This document shows, in pieces, positions 3,630 through 11,923 of a stretch of 64,000 nucleotides of DNA (positions are counted from its first letter, which is position 1; each line of letters opens with the position of its first letter). The stretch is from positions 1 through 64,000 of the IMG/VR virus record IMGVR_UViG_2706795344_000001; one strand, 5' to 3'. Under the pieces are notes generated by a model. That model ran no database searches. It worked only from the letters and a program-made list of their open reading frames with translations, and had not been told where the DNA came from. The DNA comes from a virus (Duplodnaviria; Caudoviricetes). The translations under genes and the position numbers were made by a program.

Positions 3630-4067
3630 TTAATCTTGAAGATTTTCAGGTTGTACTTTTGATAAGCCTCCACATCCTGATAGCACATCTGATACGGTAT
3701 CAGTAACTCCTCCGTTATTACCAGCCACGGATACTTCCCAAGGTTTGTAATTAACGATCTTATCAAATATGGATTTACGTAGCTCAGACTCAATAAAATG
3801 TATAAGGCCCAAAACATTCTTTGCTTCCCCTCTGGTTAGTCCGCTATCAATAACAGCCTTTTTCTTAACTGTATTTATATCATATCTTAATCTACCATCG
3901 TTAGATGGTCGGACTTTCGTTTCGAGCTGATACACGTACTTCCAAACTTCCCAACCCCCACGGCTTCGCCTCATTTTTAACTTAGTGTCCAACCCCATAC
4001 TCCTCTCTAAAATTCCAGAGAACTTCATTGTAATCTCCAACTGATTCAAAATTTCTGTATACATCAA
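3630..4067 (-). CDS. Hypothetical protein (true start probably downstream, near 3998)
   Basis: ORF in the operon. Confidence 0.55.
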   Translation of the reverse strand: MMYTEILNQLEITMKFSGILERSMGLDTKLKMRRSRGGWEVWKYVYQLETKVRPSNDGRLRYDINTVKKKAVIDSGLTRGEAKNVLGLIHFIESELRKSIFDKIVNYKPWEVSVAGNNGGVTDTVSDVLSGCGGLSKVQPENLQD

Positions 4068-4367: not shown

Positions 4368-4738
4368 TACCTTTTACCTCCCTTAGTTTGAATAAACTCC
4401 CTAATTACACTACCATGGCACTTATTAGGGTCATGACAATAGCAGAGTAAGTCCAATGGATTATTCTTGCTGTGCAAGATTAGTTCGCCCATGGCCTCAT
4501 ATGCTTCAGGGCTAAGTCTACGACCGTACAGATCGCTCCTAAATCGCTCTACAGCCTCTTCAGAGGTGTCCACGTAGGTAACAGCATATTTACTCGGTTT
4601 CGAGCTGTATGGATTCCCTAGAGGGCTTCCACGGCCTATGTAAGCCTTATTTCCCACCATCCAGTAACTAGCATCATTAAATTGCTTTAAATCGCCATTA
4701 TGAACTTTCCGTACACTGATTGGTAAATCATCAAACAT
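4367..4738 (-). CDS. DUF4326-like protein
   Basis: YIGRGSPLGNPY and LLCYCHDPNKCHG motifs. Confidence 0.75.
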   Translation of the reverse strand: MFDDLPISVRKVHNGDLKQFNDASYWMVGNKAYIGRGSPLGNPYSSKPSKYAVTYVDTSEEAVERFRSDLYGRRLSPEAYEAMGELILHSKNNPLDLLCYCHDPNKCHGSVIREFIQTKGGKR

Positions 4739-4752
4739 TTTTCATCCTCAAA

Positions 4753-4786
4753 TAAAAAGACCCCACGCATATTACTGCATGAGGTT
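4753..4786 (-). terminator. Probable intrinsic terminator
   Basis: Imperfect hairpin followed by a U-tract on the minus strand. Confidence 0.5.
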
Positions 4787-4793
4787 TATACTG

Positions 4794-5282
4794 TCAATCA
4801 TAACTTGATGAAGAACTTCCTGAAGATGATGAACCAGAGTCGCTACAAGAGCTACTTGAACCACTTGAGTATGATGGCGTAGAGTCACAAATACCACTGT
4901 TATTATTAGAATCTACTGCAACCATTGTTGCTAGGGCCACTGTAGTCGTGAAATTGTTATTTGCAATTGTTTGACTATCATCCCTATCTACCTTGGTACG
5001 TGATAAAGGGAGCTTCGAGGCTTCCATATTACTAATCTTTGGTAATGTATTAACCTTAACAGGTTCTGGATTACTATTTTCTAATGTTTTAATTGAGGTC
5101 GCCTGAACTTTAAACTCAGCACCCTTATCTAAAAGGGTTTGAAAGTCTACCTCATTTCCTTTACTATCATAAAACACCAAATCTTTTGCACCTTTCAACT
5201 TACGATTGTGCCTTTTACCTAAAAAGTAGACAACCAAAGCTATAATGAGGATTGATAATCCAATTACAATAACATTTTCCAT
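4794..5282 (-). CDS. Membrane-anchored protein with a Ser-rich tail
   Basis: N-terminal TM helix; C-terminal SSGSSSSCSDSGSSS. Confidence 0.7.
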   Translation of the reverse strand: MENVIVIGLSILIIALVVYFLGKRHNRKLKGAKDLVFYDSKGNEVDFQTLLDKGAEFKVQATSIKTLENSNPEPVKVNTLPKISNMEASKLPLSRTKVDRDDSQTIANNNFTTTVALATMVAVDSNNNSGICDSTPSYSSGSSSSCSDSGSSSSGSSSSSYD

Positions 5283-5564
5283 ATAAACCTCTTGAATTTA
5301 ATAAAATAAAAAACTAAATATACGTGCCAAACTACCAACCATCCATATAAGGACATTAAAACTTACTCCTAATAATTCGAGATTGGATACCAGACTTAAT
5401 CAAACCTGATCGTAAGCTTTGCACAAACTTCTCAACTAACTGAATCACATCATCTCTGCTCCTTCCGTACTCTGATGAAGTTTCCCTTAGCAACTCTTCA
5501 CCTTTAATTGAGACTATGCATTCAAGATGAAGTTTCCCTCCAACAATTCTGCTATCTCTGGATT

Positions 5565-6905: not shown

Positions 6906-7079
6906 ATGAGATGTATTTGTTGTGATACTCCTTTAACGTCTTTTGATGATAATGATTTGTGCAAGAGATGTATCGAAGCAAGTAAAGATGAGTCTACTAA
7001 ATTTAAAGACCCACAACATGCTTTAATCACTGACAAAGACTTTAGAAGAAAGTATAACCCACATAGACCACAACGATAA
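6906..7079 (+). CDS. Small zinc-finger-like protein, 57 aa (not in the ORF track)
   Basis: AAGGAG RBS; MRCICCDTPL...LCKRCIE. Confidence 0.7.
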   Translation: MRCICCDTPLTSFDDNDLCKRCIEASKDESTKFKDPQHALITDKDFRRKYNPHRPQR

Positions 7080-7087
7080 GTTACATA

Positions 7088-7132
7088 ACTTTACAATAAA
7101 GTTGTTGACAAATCTGGATTTTGTGATATACT
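7088..7132 (+). promoter_or_regulatory. Promoter of the tRNA/ncRNA cluster
   Basis: ACTTTACAATAAA, then TTGACA-16 nt-TATACT with TG extension. Confidence 0.7.
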
Positions 7133-7198
7133 ATTAGTATAGTTTTGATTTTATAGTAAATTTTAATTTACCTCCAACACCCAATAATAACATTATAT

Positions 7199-7287
7199 GG
7201 ATTGTAGCGTCAAGGTGACAAAGCGGACTTGAAATCCGTGCCATTGGTTAGTAGCCGATGGGGGTTCGATTCCTCTACTCTCCTCCA
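7199..7287 (+). tRNA. tRNA-Ser(TGA); two acceptor-stem mismatches
   Basis: Anticodon loop CTTGAAA, long variable arm, TTCGATT T-loop, CCA end. Confidence 0.8.
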
Positions 7288-7345
7288 GATTTTAAATCGA
7301 TTTAATTAAATATTTTAATTAATTAAATCCATTTAGGATTTCAAC

Positions 7346-7433
7346 GGTAGAAGAAATTCATAGGTTGTTTCGCTCCCTGCTAAGGAGATGGACTGCTAAC
7401 GCGGTTGTGTTTCGATTACACCTTCTATCGCCA
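7346..7433 (+). tRNA. tRNA-Ser(GCT)
   Basis: GGTAGAA/TTCTATC acceptor, CTGCTAA loop, long variable arm, GCCA end. Confidence 0.8.
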
Positions 7434-7539
7434 AACATACTTCGGCAATTTCGCTACCGAAGGAGTTGGGATTTGCTGGTATAGACTCTTAGGCAAACCA
7501 GTATTTATTTAAATTTTTAATTTAATTATTTGTGAGGTA

Positions 7540-7779
7540 TTGATGTTTACGAATGTTTGTTCAGACAAAATTGCTGAAAAGGTCGGAAGCGTATTCGACA
7601 AGCAATGTAAAACAATTGAGAAAGGTATTGAAGATATCAAAGCCAATCGAGAAAAACGCCAGATTTTGATTGCTGAGCATAAAGCTGGTTTAGCTAAGCT
7701 CGAAGCTGAAGTGGATAAAGATAATAAAAATATCGATATCCTAAATACAAAATTAAGTACACTTCGAACTTTGGTTTAA
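7540..7779 (+). CDS. Small coiled-coil protein within the tRNA cluster
   Basis: GAGGT RBS; heptad pattern. Confidence 0.7.
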   Translation: MMFTNVCSDKIAEKVGSVFDKQCKTIEKGIEDIKANREKRQILIAEHKAGLAKLEAEVDKDNKNIDILNTKLSTLRTLV

Positions 7780-7850
7780 GTGGTTAATTGGTGACGTGTT
7801 GGATGTTTAAAATAATGGAAGTTATTAGAAGTATTTAACGTCACCTTGTT

Positions 7851-7927
7851 ACGCCATTAGCTCAGATGGATAGAGCATCTGCCTTCTAAGTAGATGGTCA
7901 CGGGTTCGAATCCTGTATGGCGTACCA
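7851..7927 (+). tRNA. tRNA-Arg(TCT)
   Basis: Canonical cloverleaf, CTTCTAA loop, CCA. Confidence 0.95.
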
Positions 7928-7931
7928 ATTT

Positions 7932-8059
7932 TAAATCTATTTTAAATTTGATTCGTGTTGTGTCCCACGTTTGCTGGTACATTGAGACTCCTAAATCACT
8001 ATAAGGGACTCTCGGAAGATTAGTGACTTCTAACAGGGATTAAATTTAAAATAGATTTA
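7932..8059 (+). ncRNA. Putative structured RNA: 23-bp closing stem, three inner hairpins
   Basis: 7932-7954 pairs with 8037-8059; loop TCACTA is complementary to loop TAGTGA. Confidence 0.55.
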
Positions 8060-8060
8060 C

Positions 8061-8135
8061 GGGTTGTTAGCTGAGATGAATTAGCGCTAGCTTGAAAAGC
8101 TTGAGAGGTTGGATTGTTACCAACACTTCCCACCA
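8061..8135 (+). tRNA. tRNA-Phe(GAA), atypical
   Basis: TTGAAAA loop; T-loop ATTGTTA; two T-T mismatches in the acceptor; ACCA end. Confidence 0.7.
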
Positions 8136-8143
8136 AATATTAT

Positions 8144-8220
8144 AGCGAGTCGTGATGCTGGTTTCACAGTAGGTCTCATAAGCCTATGTACAAGAGTTCG
8201 ATTCTCTTACTTCGCTACCA
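8144..8220 (+). tRNA. tRNA-Met/Ile2(CAT); bulged acceptor
   Basis: CTCATAA loop, TTCGATT T-loop, ACCA. Confidence 0.8.
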
Positions 8221-8225
8221 AATAT

Positions 8226-8311
8226 GTATGTGTGACCCGAATTGGTAAGGGAGCGGACTGTAACTCCGTTGTCAAAAGCAATTGTAGGTTCAAGTCCTAC
8301 CACATACACCA
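8226..8311 (+). tRNA. tRNA-Tyr(GTA)
   Basis: Perfect acceptor GTATGTG/CACATAC, CTGTAAC loop, long variable arm. Confidence 0.93.
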
Positions 8312-8317
8312 AACAAT

Positions 8318-8392
8318 GGTCGATTAGCTCAGCGGTAGAGCAGTAGCCCGATAAGCTATTGGTCGCTGGTTCAAATCCAGCATCGACTACCA
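8318..8392 (+). tRNA. tRNA-Ile(GAT)
   Basis: Cloverleaf; loop CCGATAA (C33). Confidence 0.9.
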
Positions 8393-8397
8393 AATAA

Positions 8398-8549
8398 TCT
8401 CCCGATTGGGTTCGATTCCCGATCGTAACACGCTTTGAAAGTTTGAATATTCATGATAAGTTCAAATGAGTAGATGGGTTGTGTAAGTTGAAGTTAAGAG
8501 CGAGGTGGCTTGTTTCTTCAATGAGAAGGTTCGAATCCTTTGGAGACCA
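8398..8549 (+). ncRNA. tRNA-like RNA A (~152 nt, two T-loop hairpins, CCA end)
   Basis: TCTCC/GGAGA terminal stem plus CCA; T-arm GAAGG-TTCGAAT-CCTTT; second T-loop hairpin at 8403-8425. Confidence 0.6.
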
Positions 8550-8556
8550 ATTTTAT

Positions 8557-8635
8557 TGCCACGAATCCGAGCAAGGTGCATGGACCAGACTGTTAATCTG
8601 AGGTTAGATGGGTTCGATTCCCATAGTGGTAGCCA
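8557..8635 (+). tRNA. tRNA-Asn(GTT)
   Basis: CTGTTAA loop, T-arm, GCCA. Confidence 0.88.
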
Positions 8636-8689
8636 AACAAGTAGTGTGTACTTCTTCCCTCCATTTATGGAGTTCTAGTCGGCACACAG

Positions 8690-8960
8690 GCAGTGAGTAT
8701 AGATATTTGAGATAAACATTGGTTCTCTCATTTCATCGTTTCGAAAGATTCTTACTGTAACAGTTTTGATGCAAAGTGGTTTTCTTTAAAACAGGCTTAG
8801 AAAGATACATTGGTAGCAGAAACAGAGATTAAATTCTCAGGACTTTCAGCCATGTGCCTTGTTAGTTGTTGTCTGTTGGTTGATGTCAGGTATACGTGAT
8901 AGCTGAGGCTTGATAGTATCATCAACGGCTTTGAGGGATAGTGATCATAATACTCATTGC
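8690..8960 (+). ncRNA. Putative ~270-nt structured RNA
   Basis: 11-bp closing stem GCAGTGAGTAT/ATACTCATTGC with several inner hairpins; no ORF of 60 aa or more. Confidence 0.45.
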
Positions 8961-8979
8961 TTACAAAAACCTGAGATTA

Positions 8980-9056
8980 CGGTGTGTTTCGAGAAAGGGT
9001 AATCGACTGCCTTTGGAGCGCAGAATATGTAGGTTCGAGTCCTACCGCACCGACCA
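8980..9056 (+). tRNA. tRNA-Pro(TGG)
   Basis: CGGTGTG/CGCACCG acceptor, TTTGGAG loop. Confidence 0.9.
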
Positions 9057-9062
9057 AATTTA

Positions 9063-9224
9063 GAGACGTGGGCTGTGAACTCAAGAGAGATGAAAGCAAA
9101 AGTAGTCTTGCGAGTAGAGTAGCAGTGCAGTGGAAAGGTAATCGCCATGAAGGATTAACTACTCTGGTGAAAATACATGTTAAGTAGCCAGCAAGATTTG
9201 TGTTGTACAGGCGATAAGCGTCTC
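9063..9224 (+). ncRNA. Putative ~160-nt nested-stem RNA
   Basis: Nested stems GAGACGT/GCGTCTC, AGTCTTGC/GCAAGATT, TAGAGTAG/CTACTCTG. Confidence 0.5.
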
Positions 9225-9261
9225 AATGAGAGTGTAAGTTTTGATACAACACACCTAATAT

Positions 9262-9337
9262 GACTCATTAGCTCAATCGGGAGAGCGCCACACTGTCACT
9301 GTGGAGGTAAGGAGATCGAAACTCCTATGGGTCGCCA
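9262..9337 (+). tRNA. tRNA-Asp(GTC)
   Basis: CTGTCAC loop; T-loop ATCGAAA; GCCA. Confidence 0.9.
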
Positions 9338-9341
9338 AACG

Positions 9342-9602
9342 TTCGAAGCGGATTGACGTAAATGAACAGGTAGCTCCTGTGACTGAGAAGTCTATGATAT
9401 GGTAAGCAAGGCGCTTCCCTTCGAAAATAGTGAGTGGTGTACAACACGAGCGAACTGGTGTAAGGACTACCCAGACATTGCATAGAATTTGTGATGTGAA
9501 AGTCCTGACAGAATTTTAAGAATAGGTTAAAGACTTCCAAACACTCTGTTGAGATGTTAGAGAAGCAAACGGAGCTGAGTACCTATCTCACATAATAGCT
9601 CC
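9342..9602 (+). ncRNA. Putative multi-hairpin RNA
   Basis: Stems TTCGAAG/CTTCGAA, AGGACT/AGTCCT, ACATTGCA/TGTGATGT, GGAGCT/AGCTCC. Confidence 0.35.
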
Positions 9603-9607
9603 CTTTT

Positions 9608-9681
9608 GCTGGTATCGTATAGTGGTATTATGCTGGTCTTGTAATCCAGTCACGGTGGTTCGATTCCTCCTACCAGCACCA
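9608..9681 (+). tRNA. tRNA-Thr(TGT)
   Basis: GCTGGTA/TACCAGC acceptor, CTTGTAA loop. Confidence 0.9.
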
Positions 9682-9709
9682 AGATTTGTGGTAACTTTAG
9701 AGGTTTGTA

Positions 9710-10009
9710 ATGCAACATTTAGCACATGGTAATTTTATTTTAGTTGAGGATACAGAAAATGAATCTGTGACTGATGGTGGTATTGTCTTAGCCAAAGGAG
9801 CTAAAGAGCAAGAGTCCACGAAACGTTCAAAGATTATCTCTATCTCTGAGCAACTATTGCAACGATTTGAAAGTATGAATCATAAGTTTCCATTGAAAGA
9901 AGGTGATTTTATTTATCGTCGTTATTTCTCTGGAACTATGGTTATGACAAAAGACGATAAAACGTATTACGCATTACATGTTGATGATGTATTGTCTAAA
10001 GAGATTTAG
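9710..10009 (+). CDS. groES: Co-chaperonin, GroES/Cpn10-like
   Basis: ILVE...TDGGIVL mobile loop, LKEGD, YYALHVDDVL; 99 aa; GAGGT RBS. Confidence 0.85.
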   Translation: MQHLAHGNFILVEDTENESVTDGGIVLAKGAKEQESTKRSKIISISEQLLQRFESMNHKFPLKEGDFIYRRYFSGTMVMTKDDKTYYALHVDDVLSKEI

Positions 10010-10079
10010 GGTTGACCGCTGGGCGGTGACGAGGCTCCAAACCTTGTCTTGCTACGTTCGATTCGTAGTCGATCTGCCA
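10009..10079 (+). tRNA. tRNA-Trp(CCA), reduced D-arm
   Basis: GGGTTGA/TCGATCT acceptor, CTCCAAA loop, T-arm, GCCA; 71 nt. Confidence 0.75.
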
Positions 10080-10200
10080 TTTAAGCGTTGCATCGTTTAA
10101 AAGGTTTTCATAAGTTTTGACCTCAATAAAGCTTAGTGATTACGCCACATTGGGCTGGTTAGATTGAAATCTAATAAATCCATGTCATGTTGGCTGTAAT

Positions 10201-10276
10201 TGGGACGTAGTGTAGTTGGTTAGCACATGAGACTTTGACTCTCATAGATTCAGTTCGAACCTGAACGTCCCTTCCA
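10201..10276 (+). tRNA. tRNA-Gln(TTG)
   Basis: CTTTGAC loop, cloverleaf, CCA. Confidence 0.9.
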
Positions 10277-10280
10277 TTTT

Positions 10281-10366
10281 AAAGATATGTAATCTTGCTT
10301 CCGTAGAAGGTACTGACAATCTCACCTGATGTGTGCCGAGGTAAGTGGTGAGGATTACATATCTTT
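10281..10366 (+). ncRNA. Putative 86-nt structured RNA
   Basis: 15-bp closing stem AAAGATATGTAATCT/GGATTACATATCTTT; inner CTCACC/GGTGAG. Confidence 0.45.
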
Positions 10367-10371
10367 GTGAT

Positions 10372-10448
10372 GGTGATCATGGTGTAATTGGCTAGCACCG
10401 CGATTTGTGATGTCGTTAGTCTGAGTTCGAGCCTCAGTGATCACACCA
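10372..10448 (+). tRNA. tRNA-His(GTG)
   Basis: Encoded G-1, TTGTGAT loop, A73. Confidence 0.9.
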
Positions 10449-10450
10449 AT

Positions 10451-10524
10451 GCGTGATTGGTATAATGGTATTATGTCTGGCTTCCACCCAGAAGACGAGA
10501 GTTCGATTCTCTCATCCAGCGCCA
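10451..10524 (+). tRNA. tRNA-Gly(TCC); two acceptor mismatches
   Basis: CTTCCAC loop; GCGTGAT/ATCCAGC acceptor. Confidence 0.82.
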
Positions 10525-10530
10525 AATTCT

Positions 10531-10605
10531 GTTCCATTCGACTAGCGGTTAGGTCGCTTCCCTTTCAAGGAAGTAGCACGAGTTCAAATCTCGTATGGAA
10601 TACCA
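10531..10605 (+). tRNA. tRNA-Glu(TTC)
   Basis: CTTTCAA loop, cloverleaf, ACCA. Confidence 0.93.
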
Positions 10606-10613
10606 AATTCTAC

Positions 10614-10762
10614 GGTTCATCCTCCGACAATTCTTTTAAGTTGTGCATGACTTACCTGAGTTGGCTGGTGCTGAGAGGATAAATAGGAATGCTGCTTTAA
10701 GTAAAATGCAAATAGCTTAAAGTAAGGTCTTAGTTGGGTTCGATTCCCAAGTGAACTCCCCA
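10614..10762 (+). ncRNA. tRNA-like RNA B (149 nt; acceptor, T-arm and CCA with an expanded interior)
   Basis: GGTTCAT/GTGAACT 7-bp stem, TTGGG-TTCGATT-CCCAA T-arm, CCCCA tail. Confidence 0.65.
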
Positions 10763-10922
10763 AATTATTAAGAGAAGGTAATTCGCTAATATCGACGGGT
10801 ATTTGATGCTGTATTGATAGGCGCGTTATGAGTTCGACCCTCACAGGCAGGTTGGTTGCTATGCTGAAATTCTAGATTTCTCTACAGTGGCATTAATAGT
10901 GAGTTACCCTCTCTTAATAATT
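10763..10922 (+). ncRNA. Putative structured RNA: ~26-bp closing stem with an internal T-loop hairpin
   Basis: AATTATTAAGAGAAGGTAATTCGCTA pairs with TAGTGAGTTACCCTCTCTTAATAATT; TGAG-TTCGACC-CTCA inside. Confidence 0.55.
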
Positions 10923-10932
10923 TGTTTTAGGA

Positions 10933-11007
10933 ATACCATAATCTAAAGGGACGAAGTGCTGGCTTGCAAACCCAGAATAGTGAGTTCGAGTCTCACATGG
11001 TATTCCA
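10933..11007 (+). tRNA. tRNA-Cys(GCA)
   Basis: TTGCAAA loop, U73, CCA. Confidence 0.85.
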
Positions 11008-11021
11008 AAGCAAATAATAAT

Positions 11022-11099
11022 GTACAGGTGACGGGAACTGGCATACCTATCACGCTTAGAACGTGGTGCTTGTGGGTTCGAAGCCCACCCTGTATACCA
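11022..11099 (+). tRNA. tRNA-Leu(TAG), short variable loop
   Basis: CTTAGAA loop, A73, CCA. Confidence 0.88.
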
Positions 11100-11889: not shown

Positions 11890-11899
11890 TTTTACCTCA

Positions 11900-11923
11900 A
11901 GCCCGTCCAAGGGCTTTCTTTTT
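11900..11923 (+). terminator. Intrinsic terminator
   Basis: AGCCC-GTCCAA-GGGCT followed by a T-tract. Confidence 0.7.

Follow-up and report, generated by a model that had tools for sequence, protein, structure and literature searches.

In the virus genome record IMGVR_UViG_2706795344_000001, a cluster of transfer RNA (tRNA) genes at positions 7,199 to 11,099 is broken up by long non-coding segments, and the question that this locus raises is what these apparent spacers are. The full record is 104,906 bp in length, and the window that we analyzed is its first 64 kb (64,000 nucleotides, nt). We conclude, with a probability that we put at about 0.55, that the long spacers are non-coding RNA genes arrayed as cassettes in one tRNA operon. 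What the sequence shows directly is that these elements exist, that their conservation far exceeds that of the neighboring open reading frames (ORFs), that the substitutions within them keep the pairing of the + strand, and that their cassettes have borders like those of tRNA genes. They are of three kinds: expanded tRNA-like RNAs (S4 and S10a), cassettes closed by a long helix (S3, S9 and S10b), and larger multi-helix RNAs (S5, the S6 core, S7 and S8). All elements of the array given below, together with its promoter and terminator-like hairpin, lie on the + strand unless otherwise stated.

The array is located at the meeting point of leftward early genes and a rightward block that leads on to the genes for the terminase and structural proteins. 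Of its 3.9 kb, about 1.9 kb is non-coding, and this was divided into S1a, S1c, S2, S3, S4, S5, S6, S7, S8, S9, S10a and S10b. The initial annotation had counted about eight segments of 86–270 nt. There are in fact ten long non-coding segments between the tRNAs, of 71–344 nt, and two other gaps carry real ORFs, namely a coiled-coil ORF of 78 amino acids (7543–7779) and a Cpn10/GroES gene (9710–10009). Its other counts were borne out. Six tRNA–tRNA spacers are short, measuring 2–14 nt (Phe-Met 9, Met-Tyr 5, Tyr-Ile 6, His-Gly 2, Gly-Glu 6 and Cys-Leu 14), and the total of 18 tRNA genes is reached with 13 called by ARAGORN, four found by Rfam and homology, and one hidden tRNA-Ser(GCU) homologue.

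The phage was placed among the Acinetobacter myophages of the genus Saclayvirus, since the near-full-length matches to the tRNA region are myophages of ~100 kb in that genus. Matches were found in 24 Acinetobacter phage records and one Pseudoalteromonas phage record, the latter sharing only a tRNA-sized piece. Over coding regions the genome is 72–77% identical to that of Aci02-2. The GroES gene is 67–72% identical to those of all 13 close relatives and the ORF downstream 72–79%, and the 78-amino acid ORF is unalignable at the DNA level; overall, the ORFs inside or beside the operon are 67–87% identical or unalignable. Of the tRNA genes on either side of GroES, tRNA-Thr on the 5′ side is 92–99% identical where alignable, with no blastn match in two relatives, and tRNA-Trp is 96–99% identical in all 13. 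The corresponding values are 93–100% for S10a, 87–100% for S9 and 89–96% for S5. Judged by these identities, the spacers are conserved like the tRNAs and not like the proteins of the operon. The earlier proposal that the long spacers are not filler thus finds support, as most segments are conserved at a tRNA-like identity of 90–100%, above the neighboring ORFs, and substitutions in their stems keep the pairing.

The initial annotation had described paired 5′ and 3′ ends in almost all of the segments, with closing stems of up to about 26 bp. End-to-end closure is indeed found in S3 (23–28 bp), S10b (25–26 bp), S9 (17 bp), S10a (7 bp) and S4 (5 bp), the longest helices agreeing with the length given, but S5, S6, S7 and S8 have internal helices only. 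Taking this phage and its relatives together, 13 independent closing helices contain 206 Watson-Crick pairs, 19 G⋅U pairs and a single A⋅C. Because a DNA duplex or cruciform would treat G⋅T and A⋅C alike, this imbalance indicates that the pairing is selected as RNA on the tRNA-sense strand, as the G⋅T pairs had first suggested.

The same data bear on the possibility that the AU-rich inverted repeats act as DNA, forming hairpin or cruciform sites for cassette exchange, for targeting by homing endonucleases or for the initiation of replication. Cassettes are gained and lost exactly at the repeats, the array lies at a junction of divergent transcription, and a related record places a putative replication origin over its tRNA array. 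However, the closing helices favor G⋅U over A⋅C by 19 to 1, one-sided changes that preserve G⋅U pairs on the + strand are common, and no copies occur elsewhere in the genome or in other phages. We regard an explanation at the DNA level as very unlikely.

S3 (7928–8060) is a cassette of 133 nt, flush with tRNA-Arg and tRNA-Phe and closed by an AU-rich helix of 23–28 bp in which 7932–7954 pairs with 8037–8059. It has no match among 50,697 phage records and is unique to this phage. The Arg-Phe slot of the relatives contains four other unalignable sequences, each with a closing helix of 19–25 bp. Across the Saclayviruses the slot is therefore occupied by five mutually unalignable sequences, all closed by an AU-rich helix (19–28 bp) flush with the tRNAs; one phage (14/CRR8) carries an HNH gene there instead. 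S9 (10277–10372), a cassette of 96 nt between tRNA-Gln and tRNA-His, is closed by a 17-bp helix (10280–10296 with 10351–10367). Two of its 31 pairs are compensatory, and its inner stem is rebuilt in phage D22. Two more closing-helix cassettes are found in the distant A. johnsonii phage vB_AciJM_313. That phage also has an 811-nt stretch with no annotated gene between tRNA-Gln and tRNA-Asn (4573–5383), opening with a long AU-rich hairpin, and its record annotates a “putative replication origin” across part of the tRNA array.

The third cassette of this kind, S10b (10763–10932, 170 nt), is always positioned just 5′ of tRNA-Cys. Its closing helix of 25–26 bp (10763–10788 with 10897–10922) encloses an internal T-loop hairpin, and the words GATAGG and GAAATTCTAG are invariant. 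There are three old alleles: the type of this phage, the type of P1, D22 and HB01 (78% identical), and that of Acibel004. On comparing them, 28 of the 51 predicted pairs are seen to have changed on both sides. The mean for shuffled alignments is 8.6, none of 500 shuffles reaches 28, and slid controls give values of 2–10. The 25-bp closing helix alone has been rebuilt at 14 positions. The spacer 5′ of tRNA-Cys in vB_AciJM_313 was considered as a relative of S10b and rejected, as it carries an ORF.

The two expanded tRNA-like RNAs retain, of the canonical tRNA features, the acceptor stem and T-arm only. The acceptor stem of S10a (10614–10762, 149 nt) is 7 bp long (GGTTCAT/GTGAACT), its T-arm reads TTGGG-TTCGATT-CCCAA and its tail CCCCA; enlarged arms stand at the D and anticodon positions, and there is no anticodon loop. 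S4 (8398–8549, 152 nt) is closed by a TCTCC/GGAGA stem and ends in CCA; it combines a true T-arm with two interior arms, and an additional T-loop hairpin occupies the position of the D-arm. T-loops and CCA ends had already been noticed in the array; T-loop hairpins are present in S4 (two), S10a, S10b and the hidden tRNA-Ser, and CCA-type ends in S4, S10a and the hidden tRNA-Ser. The conserved unit of S10a runs from G+1 to CCCCA in three different genomic contexts, i.e., after tRNA-Glu, tRNA-His or S9, and borders that stay constant in this way look like the behavior of a tRNA gene.

Pairing is maintained in both. In S10a 99.8% of the cells of its 47 pairs are paired, with three double and five single changes, and the double count is reached by one of 500 shuffles. 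S4 is 97–100% identical in 11 relatives; its 45 pairs are paired in 100% of cells, with two pairs changed on both sides, four single changes and none broken. Taking S4 and S10a together, 12 of 13 variable stem pairs are paired in every sequence, and the thirteenth is unpaired in one of ten S10a sequences. A descriptor of acceptor stem plus T-arm matched S10a alone in the entire 105-kb genome. In its strict form it misses S4 and the PAK_P3 ncRNA2 discussed below, and is therefore unusable for surveying other phages. Apart from the Ser(gct) homologue at 7346–7433, no spacer matches a canonical tRNA by RF00005 at E-values up to 10 or by ARAGORN. We also considered S10a as an intron-containing tRNA. 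This was ruled out: the additional 73 nt are divided between two arms, a group I intron would need more, and no intron was matched by Rfam. A 15-nt T-arm word is common to S4, S10a and tRNA-Asn, from which it appears that both were probably derived from duplicated tRNA genes.

The larger multi-helix RNAs are made of conserved blocks and variable arms. S5 (8636–8979, 344 nt) comprises two modules, S5a (8636–8761) and S5b (8762–8979). S5b, carried without S5a by two relatives, is a multi-helix RNA in which blocks are conserved and arms covary; 7 of its 53 pairs are changed on both sides, and the tip of the long arm has been rebuilt in three ways. In the 205-nt spacer between tRNA-Pro and tRNA-Asp (9057–9261), the sole part kept in all relatives is the S6 core, a 71-nt motif of two hairpins (9128–9198). 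Compared with Acibel004, both hairpins are kept and 4 of 12 pairs are compensatory. S7 (9338–9607, 270 nt) consists of invariant blocks and replaceable hairpins. Its 3′ domain (~9537–9607) is conserved as far as Acibel004, against which five pairs are compensatory. S8 (10080–10200), a spacer of 121 nt with three local hairpin domains, has an identity of 93–96%, and its 3′ domain bears a Phe-like anticodon hairpin AGATTGAAATCT that is probably a tRNA relic. Compared with dinucleotide shuffles, there is a clear excess of folding energy for S3 (z = −6.6), S2 (−4.0), S9 (−3.4) and S10 (−2.8); the excess is weak for S8, S4 and S1.

Could the spacers instead encode small proteins? The records of phi1_092033, P1 and Liucustia list “hypothetical proteins” of 34–75 amino acids over S4, S5, S7 and S10. 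However, these frames are either closed in this phage or disrupted by the rearrangement of cassettes, and S7 has indels of 34, 5 and 3 nt. A minus-strand ORF (10617–10844) crosses the junction of S10a and S10b, two units that are separated in P1 and Liucustia. No frame has a ribosome-binding context, and substitutions track base pairing rather than codon position. Protein coding is the least probable of the explanations, and we consider it extremely unlikely.

Nor do the segments belong to a known RNA family, in agreement with the initial annotation. Across the array Rfam gives nothing but tRNA at gathering score, and matches with E-values up to 10 are noise only. In the window there is no Rfam covariance-model match to GOLLD, ROOL, transfer-messenger RNA (tmRNA), 6S RNA, RNase P RNA, group I introns or self-cleaving ribozymes, and ARAGORN finds no tmRNA. 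The comparison with GOLLD and ROOL that had been drawn is not sustained, as neither model matches. These RNAs share the neighborhood of phage tRNA genes and a function that is likewise unexplained, but at ~600–800 nt they are much larger. The view of the spacers as new RNAs holds for most of them. Some sequence is nevertheless tRNA or tRNA-derived, namely the hidden tRNA-Ser(GCU) and the T-arms held in common with tRNA-Asn, and matches to Rfam or to decayed tRNA genes account for a minority of the sequence only.

The hidden gene is an atypical type II tRNA-Ser(GCU) homologue of 88 nt (7346–7433), with the anticodon loop CTGCTAA, a T-loop and a GCCA end. It aligns with the ARAGORN-called tRNA-Ser(gct) of Acibel004 and is 98–100% identical across 13 relatives. 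Neither ARAGORN nor Rfam calls it here, and it is unannotated in the record of every close relative. Rfam adds tRNA-Phe at 8061–8132, above threshold (34.7 bits), and gives matches below threshold for tRNA-Met/Ile2(CAT) (8145–8216), tRNA-Asn (8557–8632) and tRNA-Ser(UGA) (7198–7284). Homologues of all four are called by ARAGORN in relatives, normally so, while the genes of this phage (8061–8135, 8145–8220, 8557–8635 and 7198–7287) are not. The tRNA-Ser(UGA) gene, which opens the operon at 7198–7287, scores 31 bits to the tRNA-Sec model and has two acceptor-stem mismatches; ARAGORN is silent on it here and calls Ser(tga) in relatives. Like S3, the tRNA-Phe of this phage has no counterpart in any relative. 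A blastn comparison with the tRNA-Phe genes of 14 relatives shows no similarity to any of them, so that the allele has evidently been replaced. For each of tRNA-Asp, Pro, His, Gly and Glu, an alignment is obtained with some relatives only. The stop codon of Cpn10/GroES ends at 10009, which is the first base of the 71-nt tRNA-Trp called by ARAGORN (to 10079); Rfam makes no call for this tRNA. In D22 a 76-nt “spacer” between tRNA-Lys and tRNA-Glu (3816–3891) is a tRNA-Gly(TCC) gene with a short D-arm deletion, a clear instance of tRNA decay within the array.

These relics raise the possibility that the spacers as a whole are tRNA remnants and recombination scars, left in an array prone to duplication, cassette exchange and the traffic of homing endonucleases, which only seem conserved through recent swaps between co-infecting Saclayviruses. 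The hidden tRNA-Ser(GCU), the T-arm word, the S8 anticodon hairpin and the truncated tRNA-Gly of D22 can all be read in this way, as can the HNH genes at cassette junctions in relatives, a duplicated 3′ half of tRNA-Ile, the four weakly scoring tRNAs of this phage and the bimodal distribution of identities. Yet structure persists in old alleles (S10b at 78% as well as in Acibel004, S7 at 76–81%, the S6 core at 72%), the variable stem pairs of S4 and S10a remain paired in 12 of 13 cases, and helices that have no counterpart in tRNA covary. Exchange moreover fails to explain a GroES gene at 67–72% between the conserved tRNA-Thr and tRNA-Trp in all 13 relatives, since exchange tracts would need to skip the ORFs every time. 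Decay and scarring is therefore an improbable account of the array as a whole. A translated search for remnants of the junction HNH proteins of relatives found none (best E-value 0.28). In Aci02-2 (1594–2245) the order is tRNA-Ile, an HNH endonuclease gene, the duplicated tRNA-Ile 3′ half and S4, an arrangement that reads as the footprint of a homing-endonuclease insertion beside a tRNA. HNH genes also lie 3′ of tRNA-Thr in Aci05 and Aci01-1.

A number of observations weigh against our conclusion that the spacers are RNA genes. The identities are bimodal, being ~100%, 78–88% or no match, and cassettes are present or absent exactly at tRNA borders. Recent exchange between phages must on this evidence explain part of the high identity; cassette exchange is plainly active, and selection is not fully separable from it. 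The comparative set is small, with ~4–5 independent lineages. Covariation is thin for S4, S9 and S10a, where divergence is only 0–13%, and the count of double changes in S4 is reached by 51 of 500 shuffles. The segments S5, S6 and S7 fold no better than dinucleotide shuffles (z between 0 and −1.1), so that the case for these is conservation and covariation, not folding energy. The closing helix of S5 bridges both of its modules, and the two relatives without S5a no longer have it. Searches for a function were no more helpful. Antisense targets within the phage genome amounted to one 16-nt and a few 14–15-nt complementarities, about the level of chance; a search of plasmids gave only tRNA-level matches to phage-plasmids; and neither a partner protein nor a target for the spacer RNAs emerged from these searches. 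Finally, co-transcription, processing and accumulation of the spacer RNAs are inferred from the cases of PAK_P3 ncRNA2 and T4 RNAC and RNAD. Three sequencing runs considered as a possible source of RNA gave DNA-like contigs that cover ORFs and spacers equally, and so carry no information on expression. The 16-nt match is a perfect complementarity between the S5b long arm (8890–8905) and genome positions 75824–75839, outside the window (E = 0.007), and may be due to chance.

The precedents for RNA genes in such a position are well described. T4 RNAC and RNAD are stable RNAs from the T4 tRNA cluster, whose function is still unexplained (PMC3014915; PMC9697503). Like the spacers here, RNAC (species 1) and RNAD (species 2) are non-tRNA RNAs, of 119–139 nt, whose genes stand head to tail among tRNA genes, and their cluster includes a homing endonuclease gene as well. 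RNAC resembles S4 and S10a in having a canonical T-arm (CCGGG-TTCGAAT-CCCGG) near the 3′ end and an enlarged interior. Sequence similarity is confined to the T-arm, however; the T4 RNAs lack closing helices of 17–28 bp, and there are two of them, compared with ~10 segments of three architectures in this phage. In PAK_P3 (Nankokuvirus), the gene for ncRNA2 is flanked by those for tRNA-Tyr and tRNA-Gln. Northern blots show this RNA to be abundant, and it has no transcription start of its own, from which it follows that it is processed (PMC10914365). Its gene lies directly 5′ of that for the large terminase, which is where the present array lies too, and the terminase of this phage is ~40% identical to those of phages of the wider PAK_P3 group. 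The published ends of ncRNA2 are 86307–86426; the 5′ end coincides with the opening base of a 7-bp acceptor-like stem, and the 3′ end lies within a C-rich tail after the T-arm. The build is that of S10a, with the 7-bp acceptor-like stem, a T-arm GAGG-TTCGATT-CCTC, a C-CCA tail and an interior of ~75 nt, although ncRNA2 is a single element rather than an array and has no sequence homology to the spacers beyond T-arm words. Sequence homology to RNAC, RNAD and ncRNA2 taken together is likewise limited to T-arm words.

All of these RNAs lie between same-strand tRNA genes in the tRNA cluster of a lytic phage, as the spacers do. A 3′ T-arm, an acceptor-like stem and an enlarged interior without an anticodon loop are found in S4 and S10a, and not in S3 or S5–S9. 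The earlier suggestion that RNA could be released from between tRNAs has precedent in PAK_P3 ncRNA2 and T4 RNAC and RNAD. Stable non-tRNA RNAs within phage tRNA clusters are thus a kind already known from T4 and PAK_P3. What is new is that one operon carries so many and such varied elements, together with the closing-helix cassettes and their hypervariable slot, and the clear comparative evidence for S10b.

Two further known systems share features with the array. RNAs of the Y family (YrlA type, bound by Ro60/Rsr) have a long terminal helix and a tRNA-like T-loop domain, a combination found here only in S10b, which has the general YrlA layout with its internal T-loop hairpin. In contrast to those systems, the phage genome has no match to a Ro60/TROVE gene at E-values up to 1 (control genomes did match), no annotated protein of that size and kind is present in Aci02-2, and the Rfam Y-RNA and YrlA models give no match at E-values up to 10. 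In ribosomal RNA operons and T7 early RNA, the sequences flanking a released RNA likewise pair into helices of ~20 bp or more that are cut by RNase III. In this phage the enclosed RNAs are small and such cleavage is only predicted.

How might the array be expressed? A strong promoter of the σ70 type (7105–7132; TTGACA, a spacing of 16 nt, then TG-n-TATACT with an extended −10 TG, matching at 11 of 12 positions) is the only strong + strand promoter ahead of the array. No terminator-like site occurs on the + strand within the array, the first being a hairpin at 11899–11916, 3′ of three small ORFs that include a thioredoxin; the Acibel004 record likewise annotates no signal within its array. One polycistronic transcript, as initially proposed, fits a single strong promoter with no terminator-like site before 11899. 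Host RNA polymerase would start at 7105–7132 and transcribe ~4.7 kb, comprising the 18 tRNAs, the tRNA-like genes and the two small ORFs. RNase P would cut at the 5′ end of each tRNA, and probably also of S4 and S10a, as both offer the minihelix of acceptor and T-arm that it recognizes. RNase E and 3′ exonucleases would then trim to the encoded CCA, so releasing each intervening RNA with defined ends. In S3, S9 and S10b the closing helices of 17–28 bp would join both ends, either shielding them against exonucleases or being cut by RNase III. The products would be non-decoding tRNA mimics, namely S4, S10a, and S10b with its T-loop, alongside closed hairpin RNAs and the larger RNAs with several helices (S5, the S6 core, S7 and S8).

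The closing helices would equally be expected if the spacers functioned only in cis. Self-pairing spacers could prevent adjacent tRNAs from misfolding together and give RNase III or RNase E a point of entry; they would determine the sequence in which the tRNAs mature and the amount of each, before being degraded. Helices of 17–28 bp have the length that RNase III needs, as established for ribosomal RNA operons and T7 early RNA, and they lie 0–10 nt from the tRNA ends. In the Arg-Phe slot, moreover, the architecture is kept while the sequence turns over completely, as expected if pairing alone matters. But an insulator needs just a stem, while here the interiors and loops are highly conserved, as in S4, S10a and the invariant words of S10b. 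Six junctions in the operon manage with 2–14 nt, the more diverged Acibel004 is wholly without S4, S5 and S9, and PAK_P3 ncRNA2 and T4 RNAC accumulate as abundant stable RNAs. We consider a role confined to cis to be unlikely.

If the spacers are instead genes for stable RNAs, they might act in trans as tRNA mimics that occupy tRNA-directed host enzymes or defense nucleases. This is a guess, and a doubtful one, prompted by tRNA-like ends without anticodons, the large set of tRNAs, and the presence of a gene for an RNA ligase; the decoy role proposed initially is likewise conjecture. A more elaborate version, in our view improbable, would make the array a counter-defense battery, in which the tRNA mimics S4, S10a and S10b and the closed hairpins are released in bulk to titrate tRNA-directed immunity of the host. 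The targets could be anticodon nucleases, enzymes modifying CCA ends, or sensors of double-stranded RNA, and the hypervariable Arg-Phe slot would hold the cassette of an arms race, exchanged among phages as their hosts change. Such a battery, if real, would provide a first function for T4 RNAC and PAK_P3 ncRNA2. The ligase is a 367-amino acid ORF with RNA ligase domain PF09414 (52 bits) at 84014–84379 of the genome, outside the window. A T4 Rnl1-type ligase profile had no match in the phage genome, and none in the control either. The annotation of Aci02-2 includes two putative RNA ligases, together with a nicotinamide phosphoribosyltransferase and a ribose-phosphate pyrophosphokinase.

RNAC and RNAD have been known since the 1970s. 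The old question of what such RNAs do becomes testable in these phages because the cassettes are naturally present, absent or replaced in similar sequenced genomes, with variants known in which S4, S9 or S10a is missing, and this lineage is a candidate for therapy against A. baumannii. There is also a consequence for annotation, as current records leave the spacers blank or call spurious small ORFs, and miss the tRNA-Ser(GCU) homologue. Further relatives were sought in several ways. The patterns of S10b and the S6 core had no match in 185,579 bacterial genomes, and among phages they matched only two that were already in the comparison set. A scan of IMG/VR with the GroES protein gave nothing; a terminase search there returned one truncated contig and those same two phages. 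A terminase profile run against metagenomes gave a single unrelated match (23% identity).

The remaining elements lie at the 5′ end of the array. S1a (7288–7342) is a long AU-rich hairpin directly 3′ of the tRNA-Ser CCA, with 18 Watson-Crick and 3 G⋅U pairs and one compensatory pair (GC to AT). S1c (7434–7542) contains two conserved hairpins together with the AU-rich leader and ribosome-binding site of the 78-amino acid ORF; its identity is 86–89%, and 79% to Acibel004. S2 (7780–7850) is a 71-nt hairpin between the stop codon of that ORF and tRNA-Arg, and is 94–97% conserved although the neighboring ORF is unalignable at the DNA level. Directly 5′ of the operon promoter, at 6906–7079, is a conserved 57-amino acid ORF with Cys pairs (phrog_31214, function unknown).

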